From: Giardia intestinalis
Taxonomy: Eukaryota
NCBI GenBank assembly: GCA_000002435.2
Contig: CM018792.1
DNA: 64,000 nucleotides
Reading direction: 5' to 3' (one strand)
Below, in pieces: positions 1-5,526 of the stretch (position 1 is the stretch's first letter; every line of letters begins with the position of its first letter). A model generated the notes under the pieces. It did not search any database. It was not told where the DNA came from and saw only the letters and a program-made list of their open reading frames with translations. The translations under genes were made by a program, and so were the position numbers.

Positions 1-1000
1 GACAGGCATCTAAGCACGCGTCTCCCAAGGGGCTCAGCTTCTTTTCTGATCCGCAAGCTTCGCAGACGTTGTCCTTACTGCACTTTTCGCAATGCTCCAT
101 GGGACACACAAAGCAGCCTGTTCCGGCTTCATTGGGTTTTTTAGTACCCTCGCAGGTAAGACACTTAACGGAATCTCCAGTCTTTGAGCACGTCTTGCAG
201 TCGGCCACACCGCCCTCACTGACACTACCGCAGAGATGGCACTTTTTGTCCTCTGCTATTGGGAAGTGTGTGTTACCACATCCGTTTTCGTCAACACACG
301 TGCCTGTCCCGTCGCTATTGGCCCCTTCTTTGAAGTATTGCTTACCAGTATCCTTGCAGGAGGTGCATTTATCCTCACCGTTGCCGGTGCACGTTCTACA
401 ATCTGCATGGCACTGCTGACAGCTTGTAGTGCCATAGTATCCGTCCACACAGCTTTTACATGTGGCCGTCTGTTCTGCACTGCTTTGTCCGGGAGTTTTC
501 GGGGCGTCGCACGTCGCACAGTTCTGAACCCCCTTATTATGATCCACACCGGCCGTGTTGTTGCATGCAATACAGGACTCCTTCGTTTTATCAGCGTCAG
601 ATGCAGGATTCTTGAAGTACCCGTCGTGGCAAGCTATGCATATTCCATCCTTATCAGCCGTGGCAGTTCTATCGTTGCACACAAGGAGCCCGATATCGCT
701 TCCCATCTCGTAGCACCCTCCCCTGTGCAGGAAGAAGCCGGCTTTACAAGATGTACATGTGCCATCATTCTTTGTTGTACATGCTCCTTCAGCATCCTCG
801 CCTGTAGTTATGCACTTTCCATTGACAAGATGCTCTGCTGCTGTCGAGCACTGGGAGCAGAAGTTTGAGCCCCCAATCCAGACGTCGCACTTTCCTGTTG
901 CGCACTGTCCTGTTTGCGGGTCACTGCTAGCCTCTGTGCATGTCGTTGCTGCCCATACCACTTGCAGGATGGCGATTCCGAAGATGATTTTCTCGAACAT
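1..1000 (-). CDS. VSP/HCMP-family cysteine-rich surface protein, 5' part. The ATG is at 1000-998 and the gene runs off the window start.
   Basis: My translation of the minus strand gives MFEKIIFGIAILQVVWAATTCTEASSDPQTGQCATGKCDVWIGGSNFCSQCSTAAEHLVNGKC..., read through about 1 kb with no stop. It has a signal-peptide-like N-terminus and dense CxxC / GGCY motifs typical of Giardia VSP/HCMP ectodomains. It is absent from the ORF track because it is truncated at the window edge. Confidence 0.75.
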   Translation of the reverse strand, partial: MFEKIIFGIAILQVVWAATTCTEASSDPQTGQCATGKCDVWIGGSNFCSQCSTAAEHLVNGKCITTGEDAEGACTTKNDGTCTSCKAGFFLHRGGCYEMGSDIGLLVCNDRTATADKDGICIACHDGYFKNPASDADKTKESCIACNNTAGVDHNKGVQNCATCDAPKTPGQSSAEQTATCKSCVDGYYGTTSCQQCHADCRTCTGNGEDKCTSCKDTGKQYFKEGANSDGTGTCVDENGCGNTHFPIAEDKKCHLCGSVSEGGVADCKTCSKTGDSVKCLTCEGTKKPNEAGTGCFVCPMEHCEKCSKDNVCEACGSEKKLSPLGDACLDAC

Positions 1001-1943
1001 TGCCGGCAGCCCATAGAGCACGCAACACCAGGCGACGCTGCCACGTGGTAAGTGAGGATAATGTGCACCCTACGAGGATGCCCCGGTGTAGCGGATCTCT
1101 GGTGTCCTAGTGGCTTCTCCTATGTGTGGCGTCTCTAGGGACCAAGGAGAGAATGTGCATTATGGCATCTCAAGAGCGGCCCCTCGCACATCACCGGTAC
1201 CTATGACAGTAATCATCACTACGTGGATAGGTCCACTCAAGTAATGAATGCACCCACTGCTATGAAACTGGACCGATGCTCCTCACAAGAGCTGCCTGGA
1301 TAAAGGAGAGAGCCACCGACAAGCCTCAGCTGTGCTCTGTCCAGGACCACCACACAGGGGCGAGAAGTCGGCTGGCCGTCACTTTTTAGCAATGACACCA
1401 ACCACTGCCTCTGCTTGGTCCTCCTGGGATGCCTAGAGCGCTCACACATGGATTCTTGTGTGTCCTCCACGGCTATCTGGGCATAGTCGCCACGGTCTCT
1501 CGTAGTTCTGTTCCCTACTGTTACAGGCCACATGCTAGCCGCCTACACAGTACTAGAGCAGCTGTAGACAAGACCGAGGCGGATCGATGAACCAGTGTGT
1601 CTGGCTTCCCCTCTGGCTGTATCTTCTATTCAGTTCAACACTCTCAGATAGCATCCTTTACATAACAGATTTTGTTAAGTACATGGATCCATTCTTAACC
1701 TTCCACTGTTACTACGGACGACCGAGCTGTTTGGCTGGCGTATGCCTCTGTAGACGGTGTTATTCTAAACTATACAATTTACAGGGGTAGGCAGAGAGTA
1801 TGAGGACTGAAGAGAAGGGAACTCAGATAGAGTCCTAGCTCAGCGGGATAGTGTCATCGTGGTCACGTTATCAATGAGTGGCAGGCTTGCACATATAGAA
1901 ACCCTTTGGTACATATTGTGCTACGCTTTATGAAAAACGCTAA

Positions 1944-4426
1944 ATGCTCGGCCTTTTACCACTGGCTCTCCTTGCTTCTATTTGCAAAAGTTCAAGAGAT
2001 GCGTATTACAACAAGTTCGGCGTGGGATGTGAGGGCAAGCAGGAGAATTGCGCCCAGGATAGGTGCTTTTCCATAGGGTCATGGACGTCATGCACCCAAT
2101 GTATCCCTGGGTATGTTCCAATAGATGGAAAATGCCAGAATTACTCCGGAGCTAGCTCCCCTCCATGTACTCCAGATGATCCCAACTCACCGACTCGCTG
2201 CATCAGATGCACATCAACAGAAAATGTCTTTCTCTTTTATGGCAGCTGCTATACAATTACAACAGCACAGAACAGAAATCTGGGCAATTTCTTGTGCTCT
2301 GAAGCATCGAATGGTGTGTGCACTAAATGCTTTGAAAGTAAGCTTGAAAGATATGTCTTTACCAATCCAGACACAAGTGCAGCTGAGAAGTGCATCCTGT
2401 GCTCCGATACGGTCGGGTTCAATGGGTACAAAGGCGCCTCTGGGTGCCTAGACTGCCTTCCTCCCATCACTGATAAAATAGGCATCGCTCTGTGTGTTAA
2501 GTGTCACTATACTACCGAGGATAGACATTTTTATCCGATTGACTATCAATGCCAAGCCAAAGGGCCTCACAATTGCGTCAATGGTTACTGCACGTCATGC
2601 TACAAGACACATTTGTTCTATGAGTATGGATGTTATAGTCGGCACAGTTCGACTGGATTTGCCATATGCGCGGGGGCGAATCAGTACGAGCTAGATAATG
2701 TTACTATCTGCAAAGAGTGCGCAAATGCATCATACGCACCCAGGAACGGAGCATGCATTCTTATCAAGGAAAATCCATCTATTGAAGAGATCGCTTTTAA
2801 GTGCACAAAGGATCCAACTAAAGGACTATGCACGGCCTGCTCTAGCTCCGCGCCATCTTTCCTCTTCTACGGCGGCTGCTATGACGAGGACGCCCGTATT
2901 AGCTCAAAACTCTGTTCAAGAATTGGATCAAATGCCTGTGAACAATGGAATAGTGCTTTCAAATGGATCTTCTCTAAGAATGGCGATAACAATAAAAATG
3001 GATATCTGTGTGGCGATATTGCAAACGGTGGCATCTCTGGCTGTGCTACGTGTAACTATGCCAGCGGTGCTGTCACTTGCACGCGGTGCTCGGCAGGGTG
3101 CCTAGGAGTGGACGGGAAGTCCTGCAGTGAAGGCTGCAGCGGAGACACTCGGGGAGTGTGCACGAAGGTAACAGAGGGGAGCGAGTCAACTGAAGTGTCG
3201 TGTCGATGCGTCTGCAGGCCGACGTTCTACAACAGCTCCGGAACGTGTACACCATGTACGGACTCGTGCGCTGTCTGCAAGGATGGCACACTAACCGGCT
3301 GTCAGCAGTGCAGCCCCGGCAAGATCCTGAGCTTCTCGATCGTCTCTAGCGAGAGTGCAGACTGTGTCGATCAGTGTTCTGTTGGTAGTGAGTGTGCAGA
3401 GTGCGGCATCACCATCGACGGCAGCAGGTACTGCACGCGCTGCAAGGACGCAAGCACGTATCCGTTCAATGGCGTGTGTATTCCAAACACACAAAGAGAC
3501 GCGTACTGTACCAGCACGGCAAATGGTGCTTGCACTGCCTGCTCAGAAGCGGCCTTCCTGATGAACGGGGGCTGCTACACAACGGAGCACTATCCAGGAA
3601 GCACTATCTGTGATAAGCAGTCAAACGGAAAGTGTGAGAAGACCAAGGAGGGGTACGGGATATCGGCCGATGGAAAGCTGCTGGAGTGCGATCCGACATG
3701 TCTGGCGTGCACTGCCCCTGGCCCCGGCCGCTGCACCAGGTGCCCCTTTGGAAAGCTCCTGAAGAAGGTCTCGGGTGCCGCCACCGGGAGCTGCGTCGGC
3801 CTTAATGCCTGTGTAGACGGGTACTATGCAGACGGAGACGCGTGCCTGCCCTGCGCCACTCCGGGGTGCAAGACCTGCGGACATGCCTCTTTCTGCACAG
3901 AGTGCGCGGGGGAGCTCTTCGTGAGCCTGGACGGGCGGTCGTGCCTGGAGGAGTGCACCGGGGACAAGGTGGTGGGAGAGGTGTCCAGCGGCGTGCAGAG
4001 GTGCTGGTGTGAGCGGGGCTTCCTACCGGCACTGGACAGATCCGGGTGTGTGCTCCCAACCGAGTGTCCCCCTGACATGTCGTGGTGTGCTGCCTGCGAT
4101 ACGTCGGGTAAGTGTCTCTCGTGTGCCGCCTCGAATCATAACATCCAGACAGATCAGCGGACGTGTGCAGAGGGGTGCGGCGCCAGGGCCTCATCGAACC
4201 AGGGGCTGTGCATGTGCGAGCTTGACGCGGTCCTCAGAAGGGCATCTGTGTTTCGACCAAGGAGCTGGCCAAGAAGAGAACGGCGGCGATCGCAGGAGGG
4301 ACGGTGGCCGGGGTCATTGTGATTGGGAGCCTGGTTGGCTTCCTTTGCTGGTGGTTTCTCTACCGGGGCAAGCGAATTGGTGCCTCTTTGAGTACTGTGG
4401 GACTCGTTCAATCCAAGTCTATGTAA
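1944..4426 (+). CDS. High-cysteine membrane protein (VSP/HCMP family). The reading frame is broken by an apparent -1 shift near 4220-4230. The frame-3 ORF ends at 4322; the TM anchor and tail are in frame 2 and end at 4426.
   Basis: The 792-aa ORF has a signal peptide ([16 protein letters not shown]), dozens of CxxC motifs and LFYG(S/G)CY repeats. Frame 2 from 4226 encodes [55 protein letters not shown]..., a canonical Giardia VSP/HCMP TM anchor (GFLCWWF). It is separated from the ectodomain frame by a TGA at 4223-4225. Confidence 0.8.
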
Positions 4427-5526
4427 CGCTCCCAAGAACTTGTTGATATACGTGTCTATGATAGGGCTATGCCCATATTGTGCTGAGCACCATTCTCGGT
4501 GTCCTTCTACAGTGAACAACTTGATCTGCGTCCACGCTGTCTTGCTGCGGCACCCCTGGGCATATTCTAGCTAACGGGGCAGAAAAGCGAAGTCTACTCA
4601 CATTATTCGCCTTGCATCTGCAAATCCGTGTGAGATCAGCGAGAAGCGGCTTCAGATACCCTTAGGTACCCTGCTTGCTAGTTGCCATCCCGAGGCACGT
4701 GATCACATCAGATACCGTTGTGAGCTTATCCCTCACACAAGTAATCATTAGCTTGGAGATGCAACCTGGTCCACCTGTACAGGGCCTTTTCCCCTGTGTA
4801 GACGTTACCAGGACAGAACAAGATGCACGAAGAACTCGTTGGCACCTGCTCTGCGCAAGTCTAGCAGCCGACATTATCTGACTTTGGATGGGCTTCTGTA
4901 ATTCTTCCTTTTAGGCATGGACTTGCTTCTGCACCAATGGCATGTGGAATATCCTAGTCTCTCAACTTAAGCACCTTTAGGAAGCAAACGCTATTTAGTA
5001 TTCAAAGGTACATCAGCTTCCCGGGTTGCCGTCGATGTCTAAGGCTATCTCTCTAGGAACTACTGTCAGCCTTGCATGCACTCATTCTAGTGCCCCATTA
5101 ATATAAGAGCTGCATTTCTTAGTCACAAGCATCAACAGCTAGTGAAGAGGTTCAATACTTCGAGAAGGTATTTCCTGGGGATCCATTCTATACTTGCAGT
5201 AATTAAAGCTCCTGCTGCAACCCTACTATTAGTTATCTGTTTTATTGGCTAAACTACACCTTTGCTACTGAACCTAGTGTGTTTCTAGGCATCACCAATG
5301 CTTGCATAGTCAACAGAAAATTGCGCTAAATCATTGGTACGGATGTACTTGTTACTATTTAATGTGCAATCCTTTCGTCTTTGTCTGCAGATAACCCGCT
5401 AATATTGAAGGAACAACAGAATTAAGACATATCTATGAGAAGCGCTGGAGAATATCCAGGCTTCAGATCCAGCAGTTCAGCTTACGCTAGGCTACTCACT
5501 CTATCATCAGTGATGAGATCACTTTG

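Follow-up and report, generated by a model that had tools for sequence, protein, structure and literature searches.

A VSP gene and a frameshifted HCMP Group 4 paralog diverging from a two-part spacer in Giardia intestinalis

The window analysed here, 64,000 nucleotides of the Giardia intestinalis WB reference genome (contig CM018792.1, assembly GCA_000002435.2), opens with what is in good probability a known and ordinary surface-antigen neighbourhood, in which the VSP AS8 gene and a frameshifted paralog of the HCMP Group 4 diverge over 943 bp of non-coding DNA. Comparison of the flanks shows that this spacer consists of two flank modules joined at about 1452/1453 and is not one long shared promoter: the left 452 bp belong with the VSP side, and the right 491 bp, together with about 35 codons, form a 5' flank that travels with the HCMP subfamily at several loci. 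The two-part spacer is a modest addition to a locus that is otherwise essentially known. The chromosome 4 assignment, the gene IDs and the VSP identity are taken from the tables of a preprint (bioRxiv 10.1101/2022.03.07.483299); the Dus protein of the window is XP_001708369.1.

The two divergent genes

The preliminary description of this DNA had recognized a head-to-head pair of VSP-family genes with a long spacer, and this holds, with start codons at 1000 (minus strand) and 1944 (plus strand) and Pfam VSP matches in both products. The minus-strand gene is VSP AS8 (VSPA8, GL50803_0040591, XP_001708393.2), a protein of 617 aa whose first 333 codons occupy positions 1–1000 and translate without interruption (333/333) to the window edge. 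This portion matches the Pfam VSP family (E = 1.1e-11), contains 12.3% cysteine and 15 CXXC motifs, and agrees with the visible stretch of the Table S3 row for GL50803_0040591 (bioRxiv 10.1101/2022.03.07.483299). The 3' part of the gene, including the transmembrane region and the CRGKA tail, lies outside the window, and what had been described as a 5' truncation is a 3' truncation, the start codon being inside and the tail beyond the edge. The start codon is embedded in CAATGTT (996–1002, minus strand; context GGCAATGTTCGAG), an instance of the PyAATGTT initiator or Kozak-like motif reported for VSP genes; the same source lists "caatgtt" for two VSPs that have the N-terminus of VSP AS8, including GL50803_0013194 (bioRxiv 10.1101/2022.03.07.483299).

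The plus-strand gene (1944–4322) is GL50803_00115202, a "High cysteine protein" of 792 aa deposited as XP_001708391.1 and KAE8303503.1 (the same product), 100% identical to P0061 and present with its ID and sequence in Table S1 of the preprint (bioRxiv 10.1101/2022.03.07.483299). It matches Pfam VSP with E = 1.3e-33, has 11.7% cysteine and 24 CXXC motifs, and shares 84–90% of its amino acids with the Group 4 HCMPs of WB and DH, which identifies it, as judged from the alignments, as an HCMP Group 4 paralog minus its in-frame transmembrane tail. DNA alignment with DH P0060 and P0002 places a frame-shifting 1-nt deletion at 4236/4237 (CTCA-GAAG versus CTCACGAAG in the paralogs). Insertion of one base at this point yields a protein of 828 aa with the tail and length of DH P0060, and the tail of this repaired product is identical to that of the DH paralog ESU34952.1. 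Frame translations of 4237–4426 (plus strand) show that the juxtamembrane region, the transmembrane domain and the cytoplasmic tail survive there as a remnant in another frame, which gives a C-terminal match to Pfam VSP (E = 7.2e-10) and has the same tail as DH P0060. The earlier extension of the HCMP to about 4430 is thus accurate for the tail, which ends at 4426 in another frame, but not for the open reading frame, which stops at 4322. The frameshift is already published: GL50803_00115202 is the example given in Table 3 of the preprint for a former HCP with its transmembrane domain in another frame (bioRxiv 10.1101/2022.03.07.483299). Since the deletion took the membrane anchor out of frame, the HCP gene may be decaying or may have been turned into a secreted form. 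The breaks in short-read assemblies fall at 4315 or 4518, within the repeated transmembrane-tail sequence.

The two genes are not close paralogs. In BLASTP the VSP AS8 portion and the HCMP are 21–31% identical over short cysteine-rich stretches only, blastn of 1–1000 against 1944–4600 gave no match at E ≤ 0.01, and the longest exact inverted match is 14 nt. The only family-level resemblance seen in DNA concerns about 90 bp of transmembrane-coding sequence (73–78% identity) and was observed against the VSP tails of related loci; the WB VSP tail lies off the window. The pair had previously been regarded as inverted paralogs able to give dsRNA or gene conversion; with such low protein identity and no detectable DNA similarity, either process between the two genes is unsupported. 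It is therefore hardly credible that the pair makes antisense RNA or dsRNA or exchanges sequence, with the long spacer serving such regulation, even though bidirectional promoters are frequent and sterile antisense transcripts common in Giardia (PMC3792122) and the transmembrane-coding regions of the family do resemble each other in inverted orientation. Transcription is divergent, so that read-through gives no overlapping antisense, and the partners of the mosaic HCP coding sequence are other HCMPs, while the relatives of the VSP are other VSP AS8-like genes.

Length and contents of the spacer

The spacer (1001–1943) separates the start codons by 943 bp, whereas the gap is far smaller in divergent pairs of housekeeping genes elsewhere in the window, for example 62 bp at 46021/46084 and 76 bp at 51607/51684. 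In WB, intergenic regions as a whole have a median of 79 nt and a mean of 392.5 nt, in comparison with 1280 and 2131 nt for VSP flanks and 363 and 812.7 nt for CRMP flanks (bioRxiv 10.1101/2022.03.07.483299), and the surroundings of VSP genes tend to contain few genes (PMC7000408). The view that a spacer of about 940 bp is unusually long is therefore correct with respect to housekeeping genes but not with respect to VSP flanks, the median of which it does not reach: the spacer is long for Giardia generally and normal for the VSP/HCMP gene class. The 1100 bp downstream of the HCP gene (4427–5526, before GL50803_0014127) contain no ORF above 70 aa and are as ORF-poor as the spacer, so both sides of this gene are gene-poor.

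Searches of the spacer for hidden features were negative for Rfam families (E ≤ 1), tRNAs, tandem repeats, internal direct or inverted repeats, Pfam families in ten six-frame segments (E ≤ 1) and a second copy elsewhere in the 64-kb window. These results bear on the idea that the spacer is a decayed mobile element or pseudogene relic, of the kind represented by the reverse-transcriptase or retrotransposon remnants that lie between several head-to-head VSP pairs (bioRxiv 10.1101/2022.03.07.483299; PMC7000408). The presence of one flank module at several loci and the position of a DH assembly break inside it are in line with such an origin, which is nevertheless very unlikely: the Pfam searches covered reverse transcriptase, integrase, VSP and other families, neither repeats nor a second copy were found, and at every locus compared the module adjoins an HCMP start in the same orientation, an arrangement that suits a gene flank more than an independent element.

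The longest ORFs of the spacer encode 98 aa (1237–1533, minus strand) and 67 aa (1587–1790, plus strand). Either could be taken for a real small protein gene hidden in the spacer, given that both are intact in several assemblage A copies, that the 67-aa ORF appears twice as a hypothetical protein (DHA2_150054 and DHA2_150572) in the gene set predicted automatically for isolate DH and carries the UniRef label "Secreted protein", and that the 98-aa ORF differs between WB and the A2-like allele in 6 synonymous as against 8 nonsynonymous codons. This reading is highly improbable. All eight variable codons of the 67-aa ORF among seven assemblage A copies are nonsynonymous (none synonymous), its P15 copy lacks the ATG and is interrupted by stops, indels and frameshifts, it has no Pfam match, and among 5.8 billion proteins it has no homologs beyond the two DH entries; its exact sequence is absent from the protein collection. 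The 98-aa ORF belongs to no Pfam family and is called as a gene in short-read and metagenome assemblies only, its cluster consisting of unnamed Logan and ENA entries; as it spans the 1452/1453 junction, it is missing from the DH paralog flank and is ruled out wherever the flank is present as a paralogous copy. For neither ORF was a WB or other NCBI accession found, and the WB re-annotation of 2020 dropped many small ORFs (PMC7000408). Both lack a coding signature and were judged non-coding. The spacer, first described as ORF-free, accordingly has no convincing ORF, although the two small ones exist; the annotation of one of them in another isolate is nominal, its substitutions not being of a coding type.

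Two flank modules and their conservation

The VSP-proximal part of the spacer (1001–1452; 452 bp, 56% GC) has no match in Rfam or Pfam and is 92.5% identical to scaffold L020, the A2-like allele of the same locus and the only one in which the whole spacer is conserved. It cannot be aligned with the DH paralog flank in L001, and an 82-bp patch (1356–1437) is 75% identical to positions 4997–5079 of the assemblage E spacer (L023). The HCMP-proximal part (1453–1943, plus strand; 491 bp, 47% GC) is the 5' flank module of the HCMP Group 4 subfamily and runs on into the signal-peptide codons to about 2050 (approximately the first 35 codons). Homology with the DH paralog flank starts sharply at 1453; identity is 97.8% to the flank of DH paralog P0002 on another contig, about 97–98% to the 233 bp present upstream of DH P0060, and 96.3% to L020. 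In assemblage E (P15, L023) it falls to 59–70%.

Between WB and L020 the spacer as a whole is 94.5% identical, as compared with 98.0–99.3% for neighbouring proteins between WB and DH, and in the comparison with assemblage E the flank is less well kept than a large part of the coding sequence (65–82%). These figures fit the raised SNP density around VSP and HCMP genes (PMC4570179), and the alignments suggest that most of the spacer is under little or no constraint. Within assemblage A the adjoining ectodomain-coding DNA is a mosaic with 23–39% synonymous difference, in which block identities change partners: L020 and L001 are 100% identical over 1753–2502 and 75–81% over 3103–3552, WB is 90–95% identical to L022 where it is 61–72% identical to L020, and dS per 100 codons along the HCMP coding sequence ranges from 0.05 to 1.5. 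This pattern points to recombination among HCMP paralogs and not with the neighbouring VSP; gene conversion appears to shape the locus among HCMP paralogs at different loci and not between the two neighbours.

Four observations run against the ordinary-neighbourhood explanation. The 491-bp flank is 96–100% identical across paralog loci in assemblage A, as opposed to pS 0.23–0.39 at the adjacent synonymous sites, and purifying selection acting over a long regulatory region, instead of recent homogenization, could account for this. The last 144 bp before the HCMP ATG are 100% identical in WB, L020, L021 and the DH L001 paralog flank, other assemblage A copies differing from WB at 1–3 positions. 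As minus-strand RNA the spacer gives a better fold than shuffled sequences (z = −3.75, from 20 shuffles only). An assemblage E locus that is not syntenic also has a head-to-head VSP/HCMP pair, its spacer collinear in part with this one, and this hints that such pairs may be kept together.

These data lead to the alternative that the HCMP-proximal 0.5 kb, signal-peptide codons included, is a functional module under selection, which might serve the Group 4 HCMPs as a long regulatory region or 5' leader, or else act as a homology anchor for ectodomain exchange among paralogs. Apart from the high identity across loci, it would be favoured by an alignment over about 440 bp in assemblage E, the plus-strand fold of 1600–1943 (z-score −2.1), compensatory changes at ten base pairs of a consensus fold from four sequences, and the apparently larger "promoter" regions of Cys-rich genes relative to other Giardia genes (bioRxiv 10.1101/2022.03.07.483299). 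We consider it unlikely, because between assemblages A and E the flank is no better kept than coding sequence (only 59% in the 143 bp beside the ATG), the longest perfect run of 14 nt is about what chance would give at 66% identity (a rough estimate, not calculated as a test), covariation contributes little (−2.9 of −74.8 kcal/mol), and in the one divergent sequence some 25 of the predicted pairs are disrupted or gapped. Blocks of 100% identity can be obtained from recombination alone, as the mosaic coding sequence shows.

Under the preferred explanation of an ordinary neighbourhood, a short element beside its start codon probably drives each gene separately: the CAATGTT initiator in the case of the VSP and the A-rich GAAAAACGCTAAATG context in that of the HCP. 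The length of the spacer would be a by-product of family evolution: duplication of segments, together with recombination or gene conversion between paralogs, would leave flanks with few genes that change more quickly than the housekeeping genes nearby, and this length may be explained without any specific function of the spacer.

Comparison with known systems

The locus resembles the gene-poor flanks described for VSP and CRMP (HCMP) genes (Xu et al., 2020, PMC7000408; bioRxiv 10.1101/2022.03.07.483299), with about 1 kb of non-coding DNA beside a VSP, a GC-richer composition towards the VSP (56%, 1001–1452) and raised local divergence between isolates. Its 943 bp lie within the published spread of lengths (median of 1280 nt for VSPs, mean of 813 nt for CRMPs), and nothing essential differs, except that the spacer is below the VSP median, is composite and is half made of an HCMP subfamily flank. 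With the short bidirectional AT-rich promoters of Giardia, as cited in PMC3792122 (Teodorovic et al., 2007), the locus shares divergent transcription units; the starts are 943 bp apart here, in contrast to 62–76 bp in housekeeping pairs, and since each has its own start-proximal motif a single shared promoter is unlikely. Head-to-head duplicated VSP pairs (Xu et al., 2020, Table 2) likewise consist of two divergent VSP-superfamily genes with an ORF-poor spacer between them, but those spacers measure about 2.5–5 kb and often hold reverse-transcriptase remnants, whereas the present genes are non-duplicates and their spacer is shorter and has no RT signature.

The same gene, GL50803_00115202, belongs to the SCRP/pseudogene class of former "High cysteine proteins" that are frameshifted HCMPs (bioRxiv 10.1101/2022.03.07.483299), with frame 1 encoding the signal peptide and Cys-rich ectodomain and frame 3 the transmembrane domain and cytoplasmic tail; the single-base lesion at 4236/4237 and the 828-aa repaired product are added here. 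Finally, VSP paralogs at different loci closely resemble one another in upstream flank and signal-peptide region but have different ectodomains, and the same is seen here; in the VSP case 200 nt were analysed, while the flank shared by the HCMP Group 4 subfamily extends over about 490 bp and reaches weakly into assemblage E.

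Identity of the two divergent genes

The DNA originates from Giardia intestinalis WB C6 (ATCC 50803): the housekeeping protein encoded at 46084-47304 is exactly XP_001708369.1, a tRNA-dihydrouridine synthase, on a 2.76-Mb contig, and the 792-aa ORF on the plus strand at 1944-4322 is 100% identical to the 'High cysteine protein' XP_001708391.1 / KAE8303503.1. Supplementary tables give this HCP gene the ID GL50803_00115202 on chromosome 4 (NC_051859.1) and list the minus-strand gene as VSP AS8 or VSPA8 (GL50803_0040591, XP_001708393.2, 617 aa) (bioRxiv 10.1101/2022.03.07.483299), and the window translation of the latter agrees with the tabulated sequence along the stretch shown. 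For the WB reference genome, the two genes, the HCP frameshift and the gene-poor neighborhoods of VSPs have all been published already.

The N-terminal 333 aa of VSP AS8 are encoded on the minus strand at 1-1000 and match the VSP domain model PF03302 (E=1.1e-11, 44.7 bits, cut-off 31.4), with 12.3% Cys and 15 CXXC motifs. At its hydrophobic N-terminus VSP AS8 carries MFEKIIFGIAILQVVWA, tabulated as the signal peptide of VSPs with the same N-terminus (Table S1, bioRxiv 10.1101/2022.03.07.483299), and a signal peptide is assigned to VSP AS8 by this correspondence. The start codon lies within GGCAATGTTCG (996-1002, minus), a PyAATGTT initiator or Kozak-like context. The gene had been described as 5'-truncated, but it is cut at the 3' end, as its ATG at 1000 is in the window and its 3' end, which would encode the transmembrane domain and CRGKA tail of a VSP, falls outside; the 617-aa protein is counted among the complete VSPs and is one of those expressed most often in culture (bioRxiv 10.1101/2022.03.07.483299). 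A protein homology search with the VSP fragment (2-1000) returned a best match of 53% identity and missed the WB VSP itself, which is attributable to incomplete coverage of the search index rather than to biology, since XP_001708393.2 exists.

A Logan contig (SRR18693223; L019 673-975, equivalent to window 1216-914, minus) has sense codons in place of two stops upstream of the VSP ATG, which results in a 72-codon in-frame N-terminal extension that was adopted by the gene caller. It differs from WB mainly in 1001-1250 and may come from another isolate or from a second, paralogous VSP AS8 5' region. An N-terminally extended VSP was rejected for the locus itself, where the stops are present in both WB and the metagenome scaffold L020, and the signal peptide and CAATGTT motif are found at the annotated ATG.

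The HCP protein matches the Pfam VSP model (E=1.3e-33) and contains 11.7% Cys with 24 CXXC and 4 CXC motifs. Together with a signal peptide tabulated in Table S1 (bioRxiv 10.1101/2022.03.07.483299), it displays the ectodomain expected of HCMPs, also termed CRMPs (VSP-like, at least 4% Cys, CXXC/CXC motifs and a signal peptide). Its closest relatives are HCMP Group 4 proteins, with 84-90% identity to XP_001704473.1 and XP_001706611.1 of WB and 60-72% to the Group 4 members of isolate P15. A start further upstream was discarded, as an in-frame stop lies directly upstream and the ATG found at 1930 belongs to another frame, and so was an upstream exon with an intron, as inspection by eye found no Giardia-type splice signals.

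The truncated reading frame of the HCP gene

The preliminary description of the plus-strand gene as an HCMP is accurate as to the ATG at 1944 but not as to the C-terminus, as the ORF stops at 4322 and the transmembrane tail, which extends to 4426, is read in another frame. Both the transmembrane domain and the non-CRGKA cytoplasmic tail are in the +2 frame, so that this 'HCMP' is devoid of an in-frame membrane anchor, a point on which scans might go astray. Alignment with two paralogs from isolate DH locates a 1-nt deletion between 4236 and 4237 (CTCA-GAAG in WB, CTCACGAAG in the paralogs), and restoring one base yields an 828-aa protein that matches DH ESU34952.1 in length and has an identical tail. 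Because the transmembrane domain and tail are out of frame the gene is annotated as 'High cysteine protein' and classed as an SCRP (a former HCP with a frameshift) or likely pseudogene; it is the Table 3 example of a former HCP with these segments in another frame, and such genes are suggested to be pseudogenes (bioRxiv 10.1101/2022.03.07.483299). The same 792-aa product is deposited under two NCBI WB accessions, XP_001708391.1 and KAE8303503.1, and an assembly error at 4236/4237 is unlikely provided that these derive from independent assemblies. Transcription of the HCP gene is modest (TPM about 10-70 in the expression tables), and the gene was not found in the table of proteins with peptide evidence (bioRxiv 10.1101/2022.03.07.483299).

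The DH paralog P0002 (contig AHGT01000046; L001 12130-12260) has an in-frame TAG after …IQVDR where WB reads …IQTDQRT…, with a separate 73-aa gene call covering its transmembrane tail. With a premature TAG in this copy and a 1-nt deletion in WB, several Group 4 HCMP genes thus bear independent truncating lesions. Programmed frameshifting at 4236 was considered and rejected, given that no slippery sequence occurs there and that other family members such as DH P0002 carry different lesions. Logan short-read assemblies of many runs break at 4315 or 4518, within the repeated transmembrane-tail sequence. Among JGI metagenome contigs, neither the HCP protein nor a 27-nt motif conserved in the flank was matched.

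Length and content of the spacer

The start codons at 1000 (minus) and 1944 (plus) are separated by 943 bp (1001-1943), in agreement with the initial estimate of about 940 bp, and this spacer is indeed far longer than those of divergent housekeeping pairs in the window, which are 62-76 bp apart. It had been regarded as unusually long, a label that holds against housekeeping genes but not within the gene class. In WB, intergenic regions have a median of 79 nt (mean 392.5 nt) genome-wide, whereas the medians are 1280 nt (mean 2131 nt) for regions flanking VSPs and 363 nt (mean 812.7 nt) for those flanking CRMPs (bioRxiv 10.1101/2022.03.07.483299). VSP surroundings tend to be gene-poor, and head-to-head VSP pairs are listed 2.5-3.2 kb apart (Xu et al. 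2020, PMC7000408). A 943-bp gap beside a VSP falls below the 1280-nt median and is ordinary for the class, and the gap is not special even locally, as ORFs are equally scarce in the 1100-bp gap between the HCP gene and GL50803_0014127 (4427-5526). A long ORF-free spacer adjoining a VSP should accordingly not be flagged as an anomaly in genome scans.

No ORF in the spacer exceeds 98 aa (1237-1533, minus), and the next longest is of 67 aa (1587-1790, plus); neither looks coding. Isolate DH has two annotated versions of the 67-aa ORF, DHA2_150572 on the paralog contig and DHA2_150054 on a 181-kb contig with the GL50803_0014127 ortholog. All 8 variable codons among seven assemblage A copies are nonsynonymous, with 0 synonymous, and the assemblage E copy has no ATG and contains stops and indels; this ORF is therefore no conserved coding sequence. 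Its 98-aa counterpart on the minus strand is an unnamed gene call solely in short-read and metagenome contigs, with 6 synonymous and 8 nonsynonymous changes; as it straddles the junction at 1452/1453 between two spacer modules, it is impossible at paralogous copies of the flank.

Searches for other features were negative: Rfam (E<=1, over 1-6000) gave no match, tRNA and tandem-repeat searches found none in the spacer, and Pfam (E<=1) gave no match in ten six-frame spacer segments, including to reverse transcriptase or retrotransposon remnants, which are frequent although not obligatory in the spacers of duplicated head-to-head VSP pairs. The minus-strand RNA fold of 1001-1943 is more stable than shuffled sequences (z=-3.75, with 20 shuffles only), while the plus strand is unremarkable (z=-1.2 overall, -2.1 for 1600-1943) and the covariation term of a four-sequence consensus fold is small. 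Neither an RNA family match nor significant covariation, either of which would indicate a structured non-coding RNA gene, was found in the spacer.

Probable origin of the spacer and comparison with known arrangements

Comparison with other copies divides the spacer in two. The DH contig with P0002 (80% amino-acid identity) aligns to window 1453-4560; homology begins sharply at 1453, with 97.8% identity to WB over 1453-1943, and to the left of this position the contig is unrelated to the window and runs into a different neighboring gene. The contig of a second DH paralog, P0060, begins 233 bp upstream of the ATG and matches the window at about 97-98% identity over this length. Scaffold L020 has the VSP, spacer and HCMP in the same arrangement as WB and is considered an A2-like allele of this locus because it carries the 67-aa ORF in a form identical to DHA2_150054. 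Across the spacer WB and L020 are 94.5% identical (51 mismatches and 1 gap), with 92.5% in the left half (1001-1452), 96.3% in the right half (1453-1943) and 100% in the 144 bp that immediately precede the HCP ATG. Neighboring proteins of WB and DH are 98.0-99.3% identical, so that most of the spacer is several-fold more divergent than they are, which fits the raised density of SNPs published for intergenic regions and for the vicinity of VSP and HCMP genes (PMC4570179). Mismatches between WB and the A2-like allele (L020 and scaffold L021) cluster at 1203-1229 (n=13) and 1480-1498 (n=9), the surrounding spacer being 97-100% identical, and these clusters could represent micro-conversion tracts or local hypervariability. 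On the VSP side, WB and L020 are nearly identical in the first ~60 codons and the 50-100 bp next to them; the remaining VSP is only ~50% identical, and it resembles a different WB VSP with the same N-terminus.

In assemblage E, too, a VSP (419 aa) lies head-to-head with a Group 4 HCMP (827 aa), across a 1453-bp spacer (P15 contig ACVC01000189; L023 3288-8484). The HCMP-proximal part of that spacer is 59-70% identical to the right module, and 82 bp within the WB left half (1356-1437) match the spacer as well, collinearly, with a ~400-bp indel between them. The P15 locus was rejected as a syntenic ortholog, as its downstream gene is unrelated to GL50803_0014127.

Two processes, constraint and recombination, might account for the near-identity of the flank. 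Among assemblage A paralogs the flank module is 96-100% similar while adjacent synonymous sites differ by a pS of 0.23-0.39 (dN/dS about 0.25). The coding sequences are mosaic, with blocks that switch partners: in 150-bp blocks L020 and the P0002 contig share 100% identity over 1753-2502 but 75-81% over 3103-3552, WB matches L022 at 90-95% in places where it matches L020 at 61-72%, and dS per 100 codons varies between 0.05 and 1.5. When assemblages A and E are compared, conservation of the flank does not exceed that of the coding sequence, and identity is only 59% in the 143 bp adjoining the ATG. Both the mosaicism and this lack of excess conservation argue for recombination and not strong constraint. 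The VSP side, with its near-identical 5' end and divergent remainder, follows this pattern.

The DNA between the genes most likely consists of two abutting family flanks, presumably left by segmental duplication and recombination among paralogs, with little or no sign of constraint over most of its length. By analogy with known Giardia promoters, a separate short element close to the start codon probably drives each gene, namely the CAATGTT initiator in the VSP and the A-rich GAAAAACGCTAAATG context in the HCP gene. A functional module in the spacer, whether a regulatory region or a recombination anchor, is unlikely, and what room it keeps is owed to the near-identity of the flank in assemblage A, the minus-strand fold score and the fact that assemblage E has a head-to-head unit as well. 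Quite improbable, too, is a more specific version in which 1453-~2050 (~0.6 kb, comprising the 5' flank and signal-peptide codons) would be selectively maintained as a 'cassette holder' of Group 4 HCMPs, i.e., a constant regulatory/targeting module and homology anchor for ectodomain shuffling among paralogs. If true, a non-VSP surface-protein family would have its own recombination-based diversification system, and the VSP/HCMP unit, present again with a collinear spacer at the non-syntenic assemblage E locus, might spread as a unit. One small addition is that the mosaic ectodomain-coding DNA of an HCMP subfamily adjoins a roughly 490-bp flank that hardly varies between several loci, which may be of interest for the study of how the non-VSP cysteine-rich families of Giardia diversify.

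Gene conversion at this locus involves HCMP paralogs, and probably VSP AS8-like genes in their turn, but does not occur between the neighboring VSP and HCP. The suggestion that these form an inverted paralog pair stands at the superfamily level only (21-31% BLASTP identity over Cys-rich stretches): blastn of 1-1000 against 1944-4600 (E<=0.01) gave no match, the longest exact inverted match between the genes is 14 nt, and the sole family likeness in DNA is ~90 bp of transmembrane-coding sequence with 73-78% identity to VSP tails of related loci. This similarity is far too little for dsRNA formation or conversion between the two neighbors, a caution that applies to scans proposing either from such an arrangement. 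Overall, the preliminary description is largely correct, with the 'unusual' label and the dsRNA/gene-conversion reading unsupported.

With regard to known systems, the locus differs from the duplicated head-to-head VSP pairs, the members of which are identical or near-identical. It also differs from the short bidirectional promoter in which starts within about 100-200 bp share one AT-rich element: here 943 bp of 47-56% GC lie between the starts, and each gene has a separate start-proximal context.
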